The position numbers were made by a program, and so were the translations under genes. From Rhodospirillales bacterium (GTDB lineage Bacteria > Pseudomonadota > Alphaproteobacteria > Rhodospirillales > UBA2165), in assembly GCA_965213765.1 (NCBI GenBank), contig OZ243926.1, forward strand, positions 2,626,971-2,690,970: a stretch of DNA of 64,000 nt, read 5' to 3'. The notes below the pieces were generated by a model. It worked only from the letters and a program-made list of their open reading frames with translations. It was not told the origin of the DNA and did not search any database. Below are positions 5,392 through 43,182 of this stretch, in pieces (the stretch's first letter is position 1; each line of letters opens with the position of its first letter).

Positions 5392-5570
5392 GGTCCGGAC
5401 TCAATTGAGCCGCCATAGGAGTGTTGCGGCGCTGCGGACGGCGCGGCACAAGGTCCCTCGCCCCCGTCAGGGGGAGAGGGATGCGGAGGGTTGGCGAGGC
5501 GAACGCCAAGCCTACCCGGCGCCGGGTGAGGGGGAGTTTCGGTCGGTCCGCTCGTCCCCTCCCGGGGGAC
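5392..5570 (+). repeat. GTCCGGAC-TIR mosaic element, copy R2 (left TIR plus hairpin module; right end not recognisable)
   Basis: TA (5390-5391) is followed by ggtccggactcaattgagccgccataggagtgttgcggcg and the ccctcgcccccgtcagggggagagggatgcggagggttggcgaggcgaacgccaagcctacccgg module. The right boundary is approximate. Confidence 0.7.
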
Positions 5571-14851: not shown

Positions 14852-15121
14852 GGGTCCGGACCCGATTGAGCCGCCATGGGAGCGTTGCGGCGACGGGGAC
14901 GGCGCGGCACGAGGTCCCTCGCCCCCGTCAGGGGGAGAGGGATGCGGAGGCTTGGCGAGCCTGCGAGCCATAGCCGGGTGAGGGGGAACTTCCATATCGC
15001 CCCCACCCTCACTCCTACCCCGGCCCTCTCCCGGAGGGAGAGGGAGTTTCGGTGGGTCCCCTCACCCCCTTCCCGGGGGGAGAGGACGAAAAAAGGAGAA
15101 TCCCCCAATCGAGTCCGGACC
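14852..15121 (+). repeat. GTCCGGAC-TIR mosaic element, copy R3 (complete, short variant)
   Basis: gggtccggacccgattgagccgccatggg at the left and cccccaatcgagtccggacc at the right. The interior holds hairpin modules HP1 and HP2. The right end abuts the TAA stop (15122-15124) of the histidine kinase. Confidence 0.8.
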
Positions 15122-16710: not shown

Positions 16711-17184
16711 GGTCCGGACACAATCGAGCCGCCATAGGAGTGTTGGGGCGATGAGGCATAAAATGATTGCGTCATGGCCGGGCCTACCGGACCGGCTTCG
16801 CCGGCCGGAGGACAAACCGCGACCCGGCCATCCACGTGCACCGCCGGCCGCGAGGCGTGGATCACCGGGTCAAATAAGGTCAATTCGGACGAATTGACCG
16901 ACCCGGTGATGACGACGTGCGGGTGAGCGGGGAGAGGAGGCTTGCCATGCGTTCCCTCGCCCCCGTCAGGGGGAGAGGGATGCGGAGGGTTGGCGAGGCG
17001 AACGCCAAGCCTACCCGGCGCTGGGTGAGGGGGAATTTCCATATCACCCTCACCCCGGCCCTCTCCCTCAGAGAGGGAGAGGGAGTAGTCGCGTTGCCGC
17101 ATCGGGTCCCCTCGTCCCCTTCCCGGAGGAGAGGGGAGGGTGAGAGGGCGCAAAAAGGAGACTCCCCTAATTGAGTACAGACCC
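16710..17184 (+). repeat. GTCCGGAC-TIR mosaic element, copy R4 (complete, long variant)
   Basis: TA(16708-9)-gggtccggacacaatcgagccgccatagg ... cccctaattgagtacagaccc-TA(17185-6). It contains the long internal module shared with R1, then HP1, HP2 and the aaaaaggaga right-end module. Confidence 0.85.
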
Positions 17185-33866: not shown

Positions 33867-34901
33867 ATGGGCGCGCGGCCGGCCGGATACGTCGTGGTTG
33901 CGGTTCTCCTGCTCGGCGCGTGCGCCCCCCGGTTCGTCCCGCCGGGTCCGCCGCGGGATGAACCGCGGCTGACGGAAAGCCATGCGGTCATGGCGGACGG
34001 CGCCCAACTGCCGCTCCGGTCCTGGCCGGTGAAAGGCGACGGGCGGGCGGTCCTGCTGGCGCTCCACGGGTTCAACGACCACGGCGAGTTCATCGACGCG
34101 GCCGCCGGGCATTTCGGCAAAGCGGGCATCAAGGTCTACGCCTACGACCAGCGCGGTTTCGGGAATGCGCCCGCGCGCGGCCGATGGGCGGGGATCGCGG
34201 CCCTGACCGACGACCTTCGGACGGTCGCCGGACTGCTGCGCCGGCGCCATGCCGACTTACCGCTATTCGTCCTCGGCCCGAGCATGGGGGGCGCCGTAAT
34301 CATGGCGGCGCAGGCCGAAAAACCGATCCCCGGGGTAAAGGGAGCCATTCTGGCCGGCCCCGCCGTTTGGGGGCGCGCCACGATGCCGTTTTACCAGCGC
34401 TGGGCCCTGTGGCTCAGCGCCCACACGGTCCCGTGGCTCACGCTCACCGGGCGCGGGATAAGCCGCAATCCGTCCGACAACAAGGAGATGCTTCGAGCCC
34501 TGGGGCGCGACCCGCTGGTCATAAAGGAAACCCGGATCGACGCCATTTACGGGTTGGCCGGCCTGATGGATCGCGCGTTCGCCTCGGCGCCCGGCTATCG
34601 GGCGCCGGCGCTGCTTCTCTACGGCGACAACGACGACATTATTCCGAACGAGGCGATGGAGCGCGTCTTCGAGCGGCTGCCGGAATCCGCCTCGGCGGTG
34701 CAGAGGATCGTACGCTACCCGGACGGCTATCATATGCTGCTGCGTGATCTGCAGGCGGAAACCGTGTGGAAGGATATCGTGGCCTGGATGGCCGATCCGG
34801 CCGCCGGCCTGCCCTCCGGTTTGGGCGCGCCGCCCCGGCGCTTTACGGCCCCAGGCGCTTCGGGTAATGTGCGCGCCCTCCACGACATTGGGCGCCCGTA
34901 G
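33867..34901 (+). CDS. alpha/beta hydrolase (lysophospholipase/monoglyceride-lipase-like), probable lipoprotein
   Basis: Lipobox-like LLLGAC, the patterns ..[10 protein letters not shown].. and ..GPSMGG.. (nucleophile elbow), and C-terminal ..GYHMLL... The last 10 nt, including the TAG, overlap the tRNA. Confidence 0.75.
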
Positions 34902-34968
34902 CTCAGCTGGATAGAGTGTCGGCCTCCGAAGCCGAAGGTCACAGGTTCGAATCCTGTCGGGCGCGCCA
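34892..34968 (+). tRNA. tRNA-Arg (anticodon CCG)
   Basis: Manual fold: acceptor GCGCCCG/CGGGCGC, D-arm GCTC..GAGT, anticodon stem TCGGC/GCCGA with loop CTCCGAA, T-arm ACAGG-TTCGAAT-CCTGT, discriminator G, and an encoded CCA. Confidence 0.9.
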
Positions 34969-35350
34969 TTCCTTTCAATGGGTTGGAGCTTACGTCCTAC
35001 GGCGCCATTTATCGCCTGCCGCACGCTGGCCGTTAGGGTTGGACAACGGCAATAAATGACGCCCAAGCATCGTTTTTATCCCCATTGACCTTTGAGCAAA
35101 ATGGTTCCCAATCGAGGCTAGTCTGTTCCTCAAATGCATCAGAGAGATTGTCCAAAGCTGTGCTTACTCTGTCACAGGCAAGGTACGGCGTAAACGCAGG
35201 CTAGAGAAAGAGCTGGTAGCTTAGATTCAATAATTGGGGACGGTCCCAAGTTCGAGATCGTATGATTGGATTATTGGGACGCCTCTTCGGTTTTTTCCGG
35301 CAGGTATCCCACTTCCTCCCAATCTTCGGAACTGGGCCCGACGTGCTGCA

Positions 35351-36304
35351 TTAGATAGCCTCGTTTGCAAATCCCCTTAGCGACCGCCATCTTGTGATTC
35401 CGAATTTGGAGAGCGTCCGAAGAATCTCTGTCCTAGTACCGATCGACACATTTCTGTTTTGTTTTCCGAGAATTTCGGAGACCCCCCAGCCGAACCTATT
35501 GCTTCGCTGGAGTTGGACTACGGCCTCTTCTCTCCCATGCCAGACGTAATAGTAGCTATTGCCCTCTAGCACCCATTTGATTTCAGAATTTAGGCAGTTT
35601 CGGAAGCGTCGGGAAGCGGCATCCATCTCTTGGCCAGATTCCAAGGGTACTAATTCTGACGTCCCTGCCCAAGGAGGTGGCGGAAACGACGCGCGGCTGA
35701 TCAGCCGATCTAACCAGTCGGCCAAGTCAAATCCGTCAGATTTAGAGGCTTTCTTTAATGAGGCCTCCAGCTCATCATCAGTCAACTCGGGCCGTAATTC
35801 TCTGATCGATTTGACTGCCAAATTAAAAGTTTCATTGAAAGCTTCGATGCTCCCAGGTTTTACAGAGCGAATCGTATCGTAAGGGAGTTGGATTTGTGTG
35901 TCGCTAGTTGCGAGCAGCTTAATTAGGTTAGGCGAAATTGACGCCGCGTGTCGCAGATATTTGGAAGTCTTGTGATCGTGCAGCAATGAGAGTAGCTCAA
36001 GATAGCGCGCCCCGGCGCAGGGTCTCCTTCCCATTTTTCCGAGCGCGGTGATTGTCCCCGAAGGACAACTTCCGCATATGAGTCGAATTACGGATTGGCG
36101 CTTACCCGAGCGAAGCAGTCGGCCAAGCTCGGCCCACTCTTCCATCCACTTCTCTTGTTGCTCGGCATGCGCCACAATCAGGCATACATAGTGAAGGCCT
36201 GGTCGGCCCAGCCCCACCAGGAAATCGGCAAATTGGGGATCGGCGTCACAAATTTTTTTCAGTGTGACGCTCAATCCACCAAATTGCGTTAGAACGGCGC
36301 TCAT
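35351..36304 (-). CDS. hypothetical protein (317 aa); the C-terminal ~90 aa resemble a PcfJ-like module
   Basis: The ATG overlaps the upstream stop (ATGA). No recognisable catalytic motif. The C-terminus ..LVPLESGQEMDAASRRFRNCLNSEIKWVLEGNSYYYVW..VVQLQ..WGVSEILGKQNRNVS.. matches the remembered PcfJ pattern (EG..M.HCV..G...T.E...Q.RG.N) only loosely. Confidence 0.6.
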   Translation of the reverse strand: MSAVLTQFGGLSVTLKKICDADPQFADFLVGLGRPGLHYVCLIVAHAEQQEKWMEEWAELGRLLRSGKRQSVIRLICGSCPSGTITALGKMGRRPCAGARYLELLSLLHDHKTSKYLRHAASISPNLIKLLATSDTQIQLPYDTIRSVKPGSIEAFNETFNLAVKSIRELRPELTDDELEASLKKASKSDGFDLADWLDRLISRASFPPPPWAGTSELVPLESGQEMDAASRRFRNCLNSEIKWVLEGNSYYYVWHGREEAVVQLQRSNRFGWGVSEILGKQNRNVSIGTRTEILRTLSKFGITRWRSLRGFANEAI

Positions 36305-36786
36305 TTCTTATCCAACACTGCGCGGAATGCATCCCGCGTCTCTTGAGTAAGTTCGACTTTCCAATCTTTCAGTGTTTCACCATCGTCGCCGTAAATGCCC
36401 TCTTCGTCCCAATCAATCAGATAGCTGTCAGGGTTTCCTGTGATTGTGCGAGTCCGCCGCGTTATTCCGGACCACAGGGTGTGATGGACTTTGTCCACAT
36501 CGACATTGAGTTCAGCAGCGACATCTTTCAGGCGGAAAAAACGATCCGGCCCTCTAGTGGCCGCGTTTAGCGCGGCACGTGTCTTCGGACTACACCCCTT
36601 CAGAAAGTCCCGGGCATTTGCCTCAGAAAACTTGACGAAATTTTCGTCTCCTTGAGGCTGCTTGCTGGGGTGTGACAATGTCTCTTCGTTGTTGGTTCCG
36701 ACCTCACTCAGCAAGTTGATCACCTTCATGCTCTGGTCCGCCGAAAGCCCCTCGATAAGCATGCTAAAGCGAATTTCTTCACTCAC
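36301..36786 (-). CDS. hypothetical acidic protein (161 aa), possible HTH-containing partner
   Basis: GTG start with AAGGAG 6 nt upstream. The central segment ..FFRLKDVAAELNVDVDKVHHTLWSGITRRTR.. looks like a helix-turn-helix or winged helix. I recognised no family. Confidence 0.55.
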   Translation of the reverse strand: MSEEIRFSMLIEGLSADQSMKVINLLSEVGTNNEETLSHPSKQPQGDENFVKFSEANARDFLKGCSPKTRAALNAATRGPDRFFRLKDVAAELNVDVDKVHHTLWSGITRRTRTITGNPDSYLIDWDEEGIYGDDGETLKDWKVELTQETRDAFRAVLDKK

Positions 36787-36821
36787 AATTCTCTCCTTGA
36801 TGCTGAAAGTTGATTCACCGC

Positions 36822-36851
36822 ATCATAGGCTAAATTCTGGAGAGAAGTCAA
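36822..36851 (-). promoter_or_regulatory. sigma70-like promoter candidate for the islet operon
   Basis: The minus strand reads TTGACT, an 18-nt spacer, then TATGAT. The -10 element lies about 35 nt upstream of the GTG at 36786. Confidence 0.45.
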
Positions 36852-36926
36852 TTATAAACACAGTGAAATATGATGAAATATTGTTATTCACCATTCTTTC
36901 ATCCATAGCGAACGGCGGAACCAGGC

Positions 36927-38444
36927 TCAACCCAGTTTCCGCTCCATGGCCTCGCAAAGCCGCGTCAGCACCTCGAGGCGCCCATGCCTCTTGTCGTTAA
37001 ACGGCACCAACTGCCAGGGCGCCGCCGCCGTGCTAGTCCGGGTGACCATCTCGTTCACCGCCGCCTCGTACTCGCTCCAACGGTCGCGGTTGCGCCAGTC
37101 CTCGTCGGTCAGCTTCCAGGCCTTGTACGGCGTCTCGGCCCGGCTCTGGAACCGCCGGGCCTGTTCATCGGGATCGATGTGAAGCCAGAACTTCATCAAC
37201 AGGGTCCCGTGCTCGACGATCTGATTCTCGAATTCCCGGATTTCCCGGAACGCCCTGCTCCACTCCGGTTCGGACGCGAAACCCTCGACCCGCTCCACCA
37301 TGACCCGCCCGTACCAACTCCGGTCGAATATGGCGAATTTGCCGTCGCGGGGAATTCGCTGCCAAAACCGCCACAGGTAATGATGCGACTTCTCCCAGTC
37401 ATTGGGGGCCGCAAAGGGATGGATGCGGTAATCGCGGGCGTCCAGCGCCGCCGTGATGCGCCGGATGGTCCCGCCCTTGCCGGCGGCATCCCAGCCCTCG
37501 AACACCAGCACCGACGCCATCTCTTGATTTTTTGCGCGCTGGTAAAGCTCGTTCAGGCGGCGGCGGAGGTTCGGCAGCTTCTCGCCGTAGACCGGTTTAT
37601 CCACCGAGGCGCTCAGATCCACCTGTGCCAGGGGCGGCCGCGAATTCGGGCCGCCGTAGGCATATGCCGTTCCGGCGCCGTTTTCGGCGGCGTTTTCGGC
37701 GGCCGAAGGCAGAACGGCCGGGTGCGGCCGGGCCCGGGCGGCCAGGTGATCGTTGATTGCCTGGCGGACCGTCCGGAGAACCACCAGGGATCTGTATCTG
37801 GCATCGCCGCCGTCGACCAGTCTCCACGGCGCGTAGGGCGCATCGGTTTGTTCGATTATCCTTTCGGCGACGTCGATGAAGCGGTCATAGTTCTCCCAAT
37901 TCCGCCAGTCCTGTTTGCTCACCTTCCAGTGCTGGGCGGCCTGCTTCTCCAATTTCCTGAGCCGGCGTTTCTGCTGGCCCTTGTCCAGGTGCATCCAGAA
38001 TTTGAGAACAAGGGCCCCGTCGTCGGCGAGGCACCGCTCGAATTCCTTGATGCGGGCGAGGCCGCGCTCGAATTTTCGTTTGTTGAGACGGCCGTAGACC
38101 CTGTCCACGAGGGGCTGCGAATACCACGCGCTGAGGTAGACGCCGATCTGGCCCTTGGGCGGGATATCGACCCAGTACCGCCAAAATTCGGGACGGGATT
38201 TCTCGCGCCGGGTCCGGGGCCCGTAGGCGCGGGTGACGATCCAGCGCGGGTCCATCCATTCATTGAGCAGGCCCGCGAGCTCGCTTTTGCCGGCGCCGTC
38301 GACACCGCCGAATATGATCAGGACGGGACAATCGGCTTTTCTGAGTGCCTGTTGGGTCAGGATCAGCGACGTGCGGAGTTCCGACGCGACCGCGTTAAAC
38401 TCCGCCTTGCCGACCGGTTCCCCACGCTCAATTTGATCGAACAC
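36927..38444 (-). CDS. two-domain PPK2-family polyphosphate:AMP/ADP phosphotransferase
   Basis: Two PPK2 repeats, ..VLIIFGGVDGAGKSE.. and ..VLVFEGWDAAGKGGTI.., each followed by ..FDRSWY-type motifs. 505 aa. Confidence 0.85.
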   Translation of the reverse strand: MFDQIERGEPVGKAEFNAVASELRTSLILTQQALRKADCPVLIIFGGVDGAGKSELAGLLNEWMDPRWIVTRAYGPRTRREKSRPEFWRYWVDIPPKGQIGVYLSAWYSQPLVDRVYGRLNKRKFERGLARIKEFERCLADDGALVLKFWMHLDKGQQKRRLRKLEKQAAQHWKVSKQDWRNWENYDRFIDVAERIIEQTDAPYAPWRLVDGGDARYRSLVVLRTVRQAINDHLAARARPHPAVLPSAAENAAENGAGTAYAYGGPNSRPPLAQVDLSASVDKPVYGEKLPNLRRRLNELYQRAKNQEMASVLVFEGWDAAGKGGTIRRITAALDARDYRIHPFAAPNDWEKSHHYLWRFWQRIPRDGKFAIFDRSWYGRVMVERVEGFASEPEWSRAFREIREFENQIVEHGTLLMKFWLHIDPDEQARRFQSRAETPYKAWKLTDEDWRNRDRWSEYEAAVNEMVTRTSTAAAPWQLVPFNDKRHGRLEVLTRLCEAMERKLG

Positions 38445-38502: not shown

Positions 38503-38583
38503 CCGGGCCCACCGGACCGGCTTCGCCGGCCGGAGGACGAACCGCGTCCCGGTCATTATCACCCTCACCCCGGCCCTCTCCCT
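38503..38583 (+). repeat. mosaic element fragment R6 (left part of an element split by IS5)
   Basis: ccaccggaccggcttcgccggccggaggac.. is shared with R1 and R4, followed by ..caccctcaccccggccctctccc (left arm of HP2). It is interrupted at about 38583. Confidence 0.7.
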
Positions 38584-39757
38584 GAGGATTCTTCTGCGAA
38601 AGTCGCAAGGAGGGGTTTGTGTCGGGGGTTGGGGCTGTTTTGGTACCGGGCGGCGGGTTTGCCGCGGCGTTTGCGGGCCGGATTGCGGTGCGTTTTGCGG
38701 TTTCCGGGCGCGTCGCGCCCTCACGGCCCGGCGAGCAGGCAGGCCCGGCGCATGTTGTAGACGGCGGCGGCGGCGAAGAGGCGGGCCGTGTTCCTGTCCC
38801 GGGACCGGCTCTTGGCGCGGCGCAGCCCGTAGAAGCGCTTGAGGGCGGAGAACACGGCCTCGACCGGGGCGCGCCGTCGCGCGATCAGAGCGTTGCGGCG
38901 CTGTTGCCAATGGGGCAGCGCGGCTATGTGCTTGTGCCGCCGGTGCATGATCCGGTCCTTGATCCCCGCCGCCTTGAGCCGCGCCCGTCTCGCCGCCTGC
39001 TCGTAGGCCTTGTCGCCATAGACCGCGGCCTCGTCGCCGCAGATCAGCCGGTCGGCGACCTCGCTCTCGGAGGTCTTGGCCGAGGTCAGCACCACCCGCC
39101 GGATCAGCCCCGACCCCTGGTCGACGCCGAGATGCGCCTTGTAGCCGAAGAAGGCGCGCCCCTTCTTGCGGGTCCAGTCGGCGCCGGGCTCGCCCGCGTG
39201 CCCGGCACCCGCGCCGGCCTTGTAGGGCGGCGGGCGCGAGGCCGCGGCCACCAGCGTGGCGTCCATCAGCGTGCCCTTGCGCACGATCAGACCGGTGGCC
39301 TCCAACTGGCGGTTGATCTCCTCGAAGGCCGCCTCCAGAACCCCGCCCGCATCCCCGCGAAAGCGGCAGATCGTGGTCTCGTCCGGCGTGCCCCCGTCAA
39401 GCGCAAAGCCGCAAAAACGCCGGAACGACAGACGGTCCAGCAGCGCCTCCTCCAGACCGGGGTCCGACAGATCGTAAAGCACCTGAAGATAAAGCGCCTT
39501 CAACATCGACAGCGGCGCATAGGGCGGACGGCCCCGGCGCCCCGGGCGGACCGCCGACGCCAGGCGCTCCAGCGGAGACCAGTCGATCAACGCATCCAGA
39601 CGATCAAGCTTCCGGTTCGACCCAAGACCCGGAGAAACAAACGCTTCCGCAAACCCCAGCTGACCCTTGCCGCTCATCGACGCCTCCAACAGTTGATAAC
39701 CACACTGAATCACATCACAAACCCATTGAGAATCCCCTTTTCGCAGAAGAATCCTCA
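38584..39757 (-). mobile_element. IS5-family insertion sequence
   Basis: The terminal inverted repeats are ..gaggattcttctgcgaaa (38584-38601) and tttcgcagaagaatcctc.. (39739-39756). There is one transposase ORF. The exact ends and target duplication are ambiguous because the host hairpin arms extend the inverted symmetry. Confidence 0.8.
38721..39677 (-). CDS. IS5-family (DDE) transposase
   Basis: MSGKGQLGFAEAFV..NRKLDRLDALIDW..PPYAPLSMLKALYLQVLYDLSDPGLEEALLDRLSFRRFCGF.. is a typical IS5-group N-terminus, with ..VYGDKAY.. in the DDE region. The start is at the internal ATG. Confidence 0.9.
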   Translation of the reverse strand: MSGKGQLGFAEAFVSPGLGSNRKLDRLDALIDWSPLERLASAVRPGRRGRPPYAPLSMLKALYLQVLYDLSDPGLEEALLDRLSFRRFCGFALDGGTPDETTICRFRGDAGGVLEAAFEEINRQLEATGLIVRKGTLMDATLVAAASRPPPYKAGAGAGHAGEPGADWTRKKGRAFFGYKAHLGVDQGSGLIRRVVLTSAKTSESEVADRLICGDEAAVYGDKAYEQAARRARLKAAGIKDRIMHRRHKHIAALPHWQQRRNALIARRRAPVEAVFSALKRFYGLRRAKSRSRDRNTARLFAAAAVYNMRRACLLAGP

Positions 39758-40003
39758 GGGAGGGAGAGGGAGTCGAACGGAATTCCCTCGCCCCTTCGGG
39801 GGGAGAGGGATCGGTCTTTCTTTTTGCACCCTCGCCCCCTTCGGGGGAGAGGGATGCGGAGGCTTGGCGAGCCTGCGAGCCATAGCCGTAGCTGGGTGAG
39901 GGGGAATTTCCATATCACCCTCACCCTCATTCCCGCCCTCACCCCGGCCCTCTCCCGGAGGGAGAGGGAGTCGAGCGGAAATCCCCTAATCGGGTCCGTT
40001 CCC
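39758..40003 (+). repeat. mosaic element R7 (right part of the IS5-split element, with right TIR)
   Basis: It resumes with the gggagggagaggg right arm of HP2 and contains hairpin modules. It ends cccctaatcgggtccgttccc, followed by TA that forms part of the acyl-CoA dehydrogenase stop codon. Confidence 0.75.
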
Positions 40004-41309: not shown

Positions 41310-41630
41310 GCGGCGTACGGCGCGGCACAAGGTCCCTCGCCCCCTTCCGGGGGGAGAGGGACCGGTCTTTCTTTTTGCACCCTCGCCCCCTTTCAGGGGG
41401 AGAGGGATGCGGAGGGTTGGCGAGGCGAACGCCGAGCCTACCCGGCGCTGGGTGAGGGGGCGAGCCTGCGAGCCATAGCCGTAGCTGGGTGAGGGGGAAT
41501 TCCGTATCGCCCTCACCCTCACTCCCACCCTCACCCCGGCCCTCTCCCGGAGGGAGAGGGAGTTTCGGTGGGTCCCCTCGCCCCTTCCCGGGGGAGAGGG
41601 GCAGGGTGAGAGGGCGCAGCGTACGGCGCA
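41310..41630 (+). repeat. mosaic element array R8 (internal hairpin modules, no TIR)
   Basis: ggcacaaggtccctcgcccc..ggggagaggg, gatcggtctttctttttgcaccctcgccccc.., HP1, a duplicated gtgaggggg module, and HP2. Boundaries are approximate. Confidence 0.7.
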
Positions 41631-42915: not shown

Positions 42916-43182
42916 ATGACCCTCACCCCAACCCTCTCCCAGGCCTACTCCGCCGAAGTAGCCTTCGGCTACGAAGGCTGGAAGGGAGAGGGAACTTGTC
43001 ATGCGTCCCCCCGCCCCCTTCGAGGGGGAGAGGGATCGGTCATTTTCTTGCACCCTCGCCCCCTTCGAGGGGGAGAGGGATCGGTCTTTCCTTTTGCACC
43101 CTCGCCCCCTTCGAGGGGGAGAGGGATGCGGAGGGTTGGCGAGGCGAACGCCAAGCCTACCCGGAGCCGGGTGAGGGGGATT
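42916..43182 (+). repeat. mosaic element array R9 with three tandem hairpin modules
   Basis: An HP2-like arm pair comes first. The unit ccctcgcccccttcgagggggagagggatcggtc..ttgca then occurs three times, the last one running into ..gatgcggagggttggcgaggcgaacgccaagcctacccgg. Confidence 0.75.

Follow-up and report, generated by a model that had tools for sequence, protein, structure and literature searches.

Islands and satellites integrated at tRNA genes are tyrosine-integrase elements whose attachment (att) repeats include the 3' end of the tRNA (Williams, 2002, cited in PMC10121019). Many hotspots of horizontal transfer have also been described in which mobile elements are lacking and the core genes on either side recombine homologously to a raised extent (PMC5635113), and at Escherichia coli hotspot #37, 68% of occupied sites carry no detectable mobile element (PMC10121019). 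The locus described here lies in a stretch of 64,000 nucleotides from a Rhodospirillales bacterium (contig OZ243926.1), referred to below as the window, and consists of a small islet of low-G+C DNA between a tRNA-Arg(CCG) gene and the gene for polyphosphate kinase 2 (PPK2). It is likely that the segment at about 34989-36912 is a decayed cassette and now fills a variable slot, particular to one clade of uncultured Rhodospirillales and lacking recombinases, whose cargo turns over via the conserved flanks.

Two conserved anchors define the slot. One is tRNA-Arg(CCG) itself (34892-34968, plus strand; ARAGORN, with 71.6 bits to the Rfam tRNA model), which is the sole tRNA that ARAGORN detects across the window and is equally placed in the related loci L002, L003, L004, L008, and L098; an Rfam scan over 34500-37300 found nothing beyond it. 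It is followed by a trailer of 20 nt, TTCCTTTCAATGGGTTGGAG (34969-34988, plus strand), that was delimited by the boundary alignment of the relatives, in which homology with L002 resumes at 34988. This trailer is recognisably conserved at all loci, closely so in L002, regardless of the gene that adjoins it. The other anchor is PPK2 (36927-38444, minus strand), which has two domains (PF03976 on orthologues) and for which a search recovered 590 relatives. In 300-nt windows, the G+C content is 0.43-0.56 from about 34950 to about 36900 and 0.62-0.73 in the flanks, and the two 1-kb bins that cover 35001-37000 (0.50 and 0.52) fall below all others in the 64 kb, which stand at 0.57-0.68. The G+C content of third codon positions (GC3) is 0.57 in orfA and 0.54 in orfB, the two intact open reading frames (ORFs) of the islet, as opposed to 0.81 in PPK2, 0.84 in the neighbouring hydrolase gene, and 0.80 in polA. 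An earlier note on this DNA had judged the islet to be low in G+C by eye, and both G+C scales and GC3 confirm it. The same holds for its report of two coupled ORFs, as orfA (161 aa, with a GTG start after AAGGAG; 36301-36786, minus strand) and orfB (317 aa; 35351-36304, minus strand) overlap by the 4 nt of ATGA.

Every orfA/orfB homologue with readable context lies in a low-G+C islet between PPK2 and tRNA-Arg(CCG), and the outer synteny is shared: hydrolase, zf-CHCC, and polA follow in one direction, acyl-CoA dehydrogenase and glyoxalase in the other. The carriers at this locus (L001, L002, L003, L004, which is the same contig as L007, L005, L006, and L098-L100) belong to uncultured Rhodospirillales or Rhodospirillaceae known from metagenome-assembled genomes (MAGs), and the comparison covers about nine loci, mostly on MAG or metagenome contigs. 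In L004, L005, and L006 the cassette reads orfA-orfB-orfC-orfD, with orfC and orfD encoding 126 and 209 aa, respectively, and in L098 the same four genes are joined by an RNase T-like gene (PF00929) before the tRNA. In L002, a 244-aa ORF replaces orfC and orfD where the window has 389 bp; L003 carries, on the opposite strand, a 268-aa ORF with distant similarity to orfD, and L001 has insertion sequence (IS) and transposase debris beyond orfB. A toxin-antitoxin-style decay, in which L003 would have lost orfB while keeping orfA, was considered and dropped, since orfB of L003 is intact on translation and had merely gone uncalled.

The window carries a reduced version of this cassette. The roughly 380 bp between the tRNA and orfB (34969-35350), previously taken for non-coding DNA, is pseudogene debris that contains the 3' stubs of orfC and orfD by tblastn. 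The orfC remnant (35274-35375, minus strand) corresponds to the C-terminal 34 aa of the 126-aa protein (74%, E 2e-12), and the orfD remnant (35039-35242, minus strand) to the C-terminal ~70 aa of a 203-209-aa protein (57% to L004 orfD and 71% to L008 orfD, E 1e-17 to 1e-18). Junction sequences indicate a deletion of ~470 bp through which the 3' end of orfB now runs, out of frame, into the middle of orfC; because of this deletion, the last ~9 residues of the window's orfB are rewritten, and the protein ends in ...RGFANEAI where homologues have variants such as ...PDLSDRL... A second deletion took the 5' two-thirds of orfD, including the stretch RVDLVI...VIEIKN, which is a putative PD-(D/E)xK-type (D...ExK) motif. 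Intact orfD gives weak matches to PADLOC Tin (9e-5 and 6e-5). The gene that adjoins the tRNA varies among the relatives (L002 11612-12346, 244 aa; L003 10789-11595, minus strand, 268 aa; L004 7555-8184 and L008 11277-11888, 203-209 aa), and each of these candidates shows the pattern R-x-D-[LI]-x-[VI] ... E-[IV]-[EK]-[AK]-K, reminiscent of PD-(D/E)xK nucleases. This suggests a "nuclease position" in the slot, with weak family matches for orfD alone.

Two further loci keep the flanks and hold other contents. L008, a Rhodospirillales MAG with a PPK2 that is 88% identical, retains the PPK2/tRNA-Arg arrangement with 2.4 kb of low-G+C DNA in between, and this encodes a 453-aa protein resembling phospholipase D (PLD; PF13091 2e-5, PADLOC ZacB 1.5e-7, DrmC 2.5e-6, phrog_28026 3e-179) as well as an orfD homologue 71% identical to that of L004. 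L088 was obtained in a metagenome scan with the 3' end of PPK2; over 37143-36913 (231 nt) it shares 98.3% identity with the window, and it then diverges 14 nt past the PPK2 stop and carries a toxin-like 109-aa ORF, a 369-aa ImmA/IrrE protein (PF06114 7e-10, PADLOC PD-Lambda-2_B 3e-23), and an aGPT-Pplase3 gene (PF18746 1e-99). The last of these (L088 1869-2789, minus strand) is an observation in its own right: a full-length aGPT-Pplase3 or amino-acid:DNA transferase gene (thymine hypermodification) stands in a chromosomal hotspot, adjoining the PD-Lambda-2_B-like ImmA/IrrE gene. The next-closest PPK2 (L009, 62% identity) has no tRNA alongside. At least three unrelated cargo types and several sub-variants are found between PPK2 and tRNA-Arg(CCG), and the occupants measure 1.9-3.2 kb. 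The idea that both genes might sit at the same locus with the same composition in all relatives is borne out for the orfA/orfB carriers, where locus and low G+C are shared, but not for L008 and L088.

These cassettes are also free of recombinases. In the window, searches of Pfam, NCBIfam, PADLOC, and PHROGs gave no family match for orfA or orfB, bar one sub-threshold winged helix-turn-helix (wHTH) match of orfA, and the rest of the islet is made up of the orfC and orfD stubs, in agreement with the earlier note, which had seen no recombinase. None of the slot genes in L001-L008, L088, and L098 is a recombinase, with the IS/transposase debris beyond orfB in L001 as the sole exception; no integrase or integrase fragment was found in the slot at the loci examined, and no integrase in the ~17 kb that is syntenic with L002.

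The edges of the slot differ from one comparison to the next. On the PPK2 side, homology with all relatives runs to 36911-36913, and the next ~120 nt (36912-36787) are found in the window and L002 only, where they replace ~35 nt of shared post-PPK2 sequence that L098, L008, and L004 keep. On the tRNA side, homology with the window ends at 34988 in L002, at 35029 in L003, and at ~35180 in L004 and L008. Breakpoints therefore differ between genome pairs on both sides, and the junctions, as read from these alignments, are not like the fixed ones left by site-specific integration.

The pattern of divergence is likewise uneven. L002 is ~96% identical to the window over ~17 kb, and against a background of 2-5% its orfB region is 0.3-0.7% diverged, giving a mosaic profile. 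At synonymous sites, 10.5 differences in 337 sites of orfA and orfB (3.1%) compare with 134 in 1318 sites of PPK2, hydrolase, and polA (10.2%; Fisher p = 6.5e-6), so that relative to L002 the islet is ~3 times less diverged than its flanks. In the comparison with L004, synonymous divergence (dS) is 0.36 for orfB versus 0.25-0.26 for the flanks, with a ratio of nonsynonymous to synonymous divergence (dN/dS) of 0.32. Furthermore, orfA and its upstream region occur in two types (53% amino-acid identity) that are joined to orfB genes 80-85% identical to each other. These contrasting divergences show the cassette to be a mosaic of modules with different histories, and at least part of it appears to have passed between lineages at a more recent date than the chromosome around it.

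The explanation that we favour is a slot between the tRNA-Arg(CCG) trailer and the 3' end of PPK2, whose occupant would be a reduced low-G+C cassette of four or five genes: orfA, orfB, orfC, orfD (for a putative D...ExK/Tin-like nuclease), and, in one lineage, an RNase T-like exonuclease. Homologous recombination in the conserved flanks would replace cargo or let lineages share it, and illegitimate deletions would then trim it; in the window, internal deletions would have cost orfC and orfD their 5' parts and left the coupled orfA-orfB pair alone intact, downstream of a sigma-70-like promoter. Integration at a specific site in the tRNA would play no part. The recombination step is read from the nine or so loci compared, with the contrast between islet and flank divergence taken against L002 alone.

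By analogy, this pattern fits known mobile-element-free hotspots in which turnover occurs by homologous recombination of the flanks. Like the integrase-free recombination hotspots of Oliveira et al. (2017), the slot has fixed core flanks (PPK2 on one side, tRNA-Arg and hydrolase on the other) around differing accessory content, shows no integrase or other mobile-element hallmark apart from the IS debris of L001, borders on a tRNA, and displays a mismatch between the divergence of cargo and flanks. Unlike them, it is known from uncultured loci rather than from a species-level pangenome, no empty state is seen, and recombination in the flanks is something that we infer. The slot also resembles defence hotspots without known mobilisation (E. 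coli hotspot #37 and the core defence hotspots of P. aeruginosa, as cited in PMC10121019), in that there is no mobile element, contents differ between close relatives, and the alternative occupants include a PD-Lambda-2_B-like ImmA/IrrE protein, a PLD nuclease resembling DrmC/ZacB, and a Tin-like protein. It departs from them in that the window's own orfA and orfB match no defence family, PADLOC matches being limited to the alternative occupants and the lost orfD; in its size of 2-3 kb with one cassette at a time; and in its different phylum-level context, and any anti-phage activity of it would be putative. A compositionally foreign islet beside a tRNA thus need not be an integrase-made island, and interchangeable small cassettes in the same slot with no recombinase at hand, though predicted by hotspot theory, have rarely been documented outside model species.

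The islet does share several traits with tRNA-integrated islands: it lies directly 3' of a tRNA, has an atypical G+C content and small accessory cargo, and is visibly decaying. It could accordingly be pictured as the relic of an integrative island that inserted at the 3' end of tRNA-Arg(CCG) and later lost its integrase by deletion, with CCATTC(C)TTTCA as the remains of attL and attR; its empty site would then read tRNA, a single core, and TCCATAGCGAACGG. We regard this as quite improbable. The repeat in question consists of a left copy, CCATTCCTTTCA (34966-34977, plus strand), that falls wholly within the tRNA CCA and the conserved trailer, and a right copy, CCATTCTTTCA (36891-36901, plus strand), in the upstream segment specific to the window and L002 (36787-36912, minus strand; delimited by alignments and the mosaic map). 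Both strings are present where the earlier note had placed them and agree at 11/12 positions with one indel, and just 3 nt (CCA) belong to the tRNA. Whether they exceed chance depends on the test, with p ranging from 0.003 to 0.33. A local alignment of the 71-nt zone at the tRNA end with the 81-nt zone at the G+C switch scores 9.5, which is reached in 104/1000 dinucleotide shuffles and in 33% of random 81-nt windows of real sequence. The CCA-anchored 12-mer recurs with at most one edit in 58/20000 shuffles of the zone (nominal p ~0.003), any of 41 neighbouring 12-mers does so in 45/3000 (nominal p 0.015), and the copy on the PPK2 side is the sole match of the anchored 12-mer with at most one edit in the whole window on either strand. 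Since the significance varies with the test and the overlap with the tRNA is CCA alone, the repeat is suggestive at best. The comparative data speak against it. In L002 the right copy reads CTATTCTTTCA, with one more mismatch, and is already degraded; in boundary alignments it is absent from L004, L003, L001, L008, L088, and L098, even though L098 has a window-type orfA. It had been said to lie exactly where the composition switches back, but the PPK2 flank of every relative remains homologous only as far as 36911-36913, so that the copy sits 10-12 nt inside the variable segment rather than at its edge. No partial tRNA copy or tRNA 3' half was found near PPK2 at any locus examined, and, unlike a tRNA-integrated island, the islet comes with neither an integrase nor a duplicated tRNA 3' segment. 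With heterogeneous breakpoints, a candidate repeat that is unconserved among carriers and off the homology breakpoint, and no integrase at any of the loci or in the ~17 kb shared with L002, the repeat is best read as a chance match, or at most microhomology, and not as an att site. Of the earlier proposal of a decayed island that kept its cargo only, the foreign composition and the reduction of a larger cassette stand, and the att-bounded, tRNA-targeting mechanism does not. More generally, a short repeat that touches a tRNA CCA is weak evidence of an att site unless comparative data back it.

Vertical inheritance offers a different account, in which an old lineage-specific cluster was acquired once in the ancestor of the clade, owes its low G+C to function or to too short a time for amelioration, and differs between genomes through local decay. 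The shared location of these genes in six or seven relatives with PPK2 identities of 87-96%, the similarity of orfB dS relative to L004 (0.36) to that of the flanks (0.25-0.26), and the purifying selection implied by a dN/dS of 0.3 would all be expected on this account. It is nonetheless unlikely, because L008 (88% amino-acid identity in PPK2) and L088 (98.3% nucleotide identity over 231 nt) are at least as close and contain unrelated cargo. Moreover, the threefold lower divergence of the islet relative to L002, the joining of two orfA/upstream types to similar orfB genes, and the occurrence of orfD in different cassettes are at odds with a single shared history. There is even less to commend a very small element mobilised in trans, as the earlier note had also proposed, and we consider this very improbable; such an element would be non-autonomous and would depend on an integrase from another locus or on being packaged by a phage or gene-transfer agent. 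The occupants are small and the islet is less diverged than its flanks, and in our view segments of this size could be accommodated in the heads of alphaproteobacterial gene-transfer agents, which take roughly 4 kb. Against this, the ends are not conserved, the 64-kb window holds no second copy of the islet, and no copy of the cassette was found in the plasmid collection (close matches), the phage collection, or viral contigs, where single-protein scans with orfB, orfD, and the PLD protein likewise returned no relatives. Random packaging followed by recombination in the flanks would, in effect, be the replacement of cargo in a variable slot and not a distinct element.

Several observations weigh against the variable slot that we prefer. 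Matches to PPK2 and the tRNA in genomes and metagenomes yielded no empty tRNA-Arg/PPK2 junction, and thus no empty site with a single repeat copy such as the earlier note had suggested looking for, but only alternative cargo, as in L008 and L088; gain and loss in the slot are accordingly deduced from alternative contents and not seen directly. L088 was read over 3 kb from the PPK2 side, and its tRNA-side boundary falls outside those 3 kb. The k-mer p values of 0.003-0.015 make it possible that the repeat was left behind by some site-directed or microhomology event in the sublineage of the window and L002, and the lower synonymous divergence of the islet could stem in part from differing substitution dynamics in AT-richer genes. 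As regards function, orfA and orfB match no known defence family, with no PADLOC match at E<=1, and the D...ExK motif of orfD is a reading of the sequence whose sole backing is the weak PADLOC Tin matches.

Within the cassette, orfB can be placed most readily. PF14284 (PcfJ-like) is named after PcfJ of the Enterococcus faecalis plasmid pCF10 and is a domain of unknown function encountered in the context of mobile elements; a literature search found no functional work on it. The orfB protein itself has 5 close homologue clusters among 5.8 billion proteins and falls below every Pfam threshold, including that of PF14284. Its family profile gathers 1160 representative clusters at E<=1e-3 among 1.84 billion proteins, 6 of 69 aligned family members match PF14284 (best 1.6e-8), and hhalign aligns the profile with a PF14284-positive plasmid protein of Marinomonas (33.8 bits against a cut-off of 25) at a probability of 99.2% and an E-value of 1.7e-19. 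On the strength of these family matches and this alignment, orfB is assigned from sequence as a divergent PcfJ-domain protein. The domain occupies the C-terminal third, where ~100 aa show the conserved pattern FPxPPWxG...PL.S...NCL...G..YFY...GW...E..G..N; in contrast to the PcfJ-like family, the N-terminal ~200 aa are helical and family-specific, and the gene is chromosomal and paired with orfA. Its dN/dS is 0.3-0.6. The AlphaFold2 (AF2) model, built on a shallow alignment, has a mean predicted confidence (pLDDT) of 46.7 and is unusable for fold assignment. PDB sequence searches with orfD, the 244-aa ORF of L002, and profiles of orfA and orfB gave nothing usable, and an exact-sequence look-up of the window's PPK2, hydrolase, and orfB found no identical record. 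Plasmid and phage tblastn returned distant PcfJ-like matches only, in uninformative neighbourhoods, and a profile search of a word-indexed protein database added one further contig, also uninformative. The closest annotated plasmid gene with a PcfJ domain lies on the Marinomonas algicola plasmid NZ_CP061942.1 (L094, 3286-6649), a few genes downstream of a type I restriction hsdR gene, and is followed by a gene for a tubulin/FtsZ-family GTPase (PF00091, 4e-32).

The upstream partner, orfA, has 7 close homologue clusters among 5.8 billion proteins and is possibly a winged helix-turn-helix protein, the evidence being weak: a sub-threshold match to Rv2175c_wHTH (E 0.088) and a Foldseek list dominated by MarR/ArsR proteins, all at E>0.5, for an AF2 model that, at a pLDDT of 58.4 from a shallow alignment, is too low for fold assignment. 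Its N-terminal ~50 residues are hypervariable. Codons 1-50 differ from those of L002 at 20 nonsynonymous and 2 synonymous positions, and the gene as a whole has a dN/dS of 3.6 that is not significant (Fisher p 0.09). Across the clade there are two deeply different N-terminal types, and L004 carries the other allele type, with 53% amino-acid identity. Relative to L002, codons 1-50 (36637-36786) and the upstream segment (36787-36912) together form a hot zone of divergence, at 11% compared with 0.3-0.7% in the adjoining orfB. The homologue in L003 (9234-9821, P0009) has an internal duplication of ~36 aa over a D(E/D)N(F/L)VKFS...SRAA segment and is 195 aa long as a result. When held against type II toxin-antitoxin modules, orfA-orfB shows the 4-nt overlap and an upstream gene that is possibly wHTH, together with no toxin-family match and unreliable structure models.

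From its context, the cassette probably serves as a nucleic-acid-directed accessory, for example in defence or in an addiction-like role. A defence-type role is proposed because nuclease-like genes occur in the cassette and defence-family genes in the alternative occupants, and the copy in the window may be inactive because its nuclease-like orfD is lost. In this respect, the slot is a useful place to seek new defence-type genes, and it links the PcfJ-domain family to nuclease-containing cassettes. It is conceivable, though doubtful, that orfA-orfB together with orfC and the D...ExK/Tin-like nuclease, sometimes with a DEDD exonuclease, make up an undescribed anti-phage or anti-plasmid system with a PcfJ-domain core. 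If so, it would provide the first functional handle on the large uncharacterised PcfJ-like superfamily (>1000 representative clusters), and the hypervariable N-terminus of orfA would be a fast-evolving specificity or sensing module.

Some smaller features of the locus and its surroundings complete the picture. A candidate sigma-70-like promoter for orfA-orfB, TTGACT-18-TATGAT (36822-36851, minus strand), was found by a consensus scan and is a consensus match only, at 10/12 positions. At the other end of the slot, the tRNA CCA and trailer (34966-34981) form a small inverted repeat, CCATT-CCTTTC-AATGG (a CCATT-N6-AATGG hairpin), of which relatives retain a shorter CCAT...ATGG version; this hairpin could be a putative processing or termination signal. 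Directly upstream of PPK2 lies an IS5-type insertion sequence (38509-39752) with a transposase ORF (38721-39713, minus strand) that matches DDE_Tnp_1 at 2e-27 and DUF772 at 4.5e-23. It is missing at the equivalent place in the 96%-identical L002, and it is considered unrelated to the islet because its G+C content is high (0.70-0.74). Finally, the window contains a dispersed family of G+C-rich palindromic intergenic repeats with the core CCCTCGCCCCCGTCAGGGGGAGAGGGA, similar to repetitive extragenic palindromes (REP) or miniature inverted-repeat transposable elements (MITE). Copies lie at 392-459, 5431-5498, 14892-14959, 16930-16997, 39804-39871, 41357-41424, 41551-41618, 42984-43051, and 43076-43143. 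Further dispersed repeat families (D2-D8) are also present in the window, and the palindromic intergenic repeats match several places in L002 as well.

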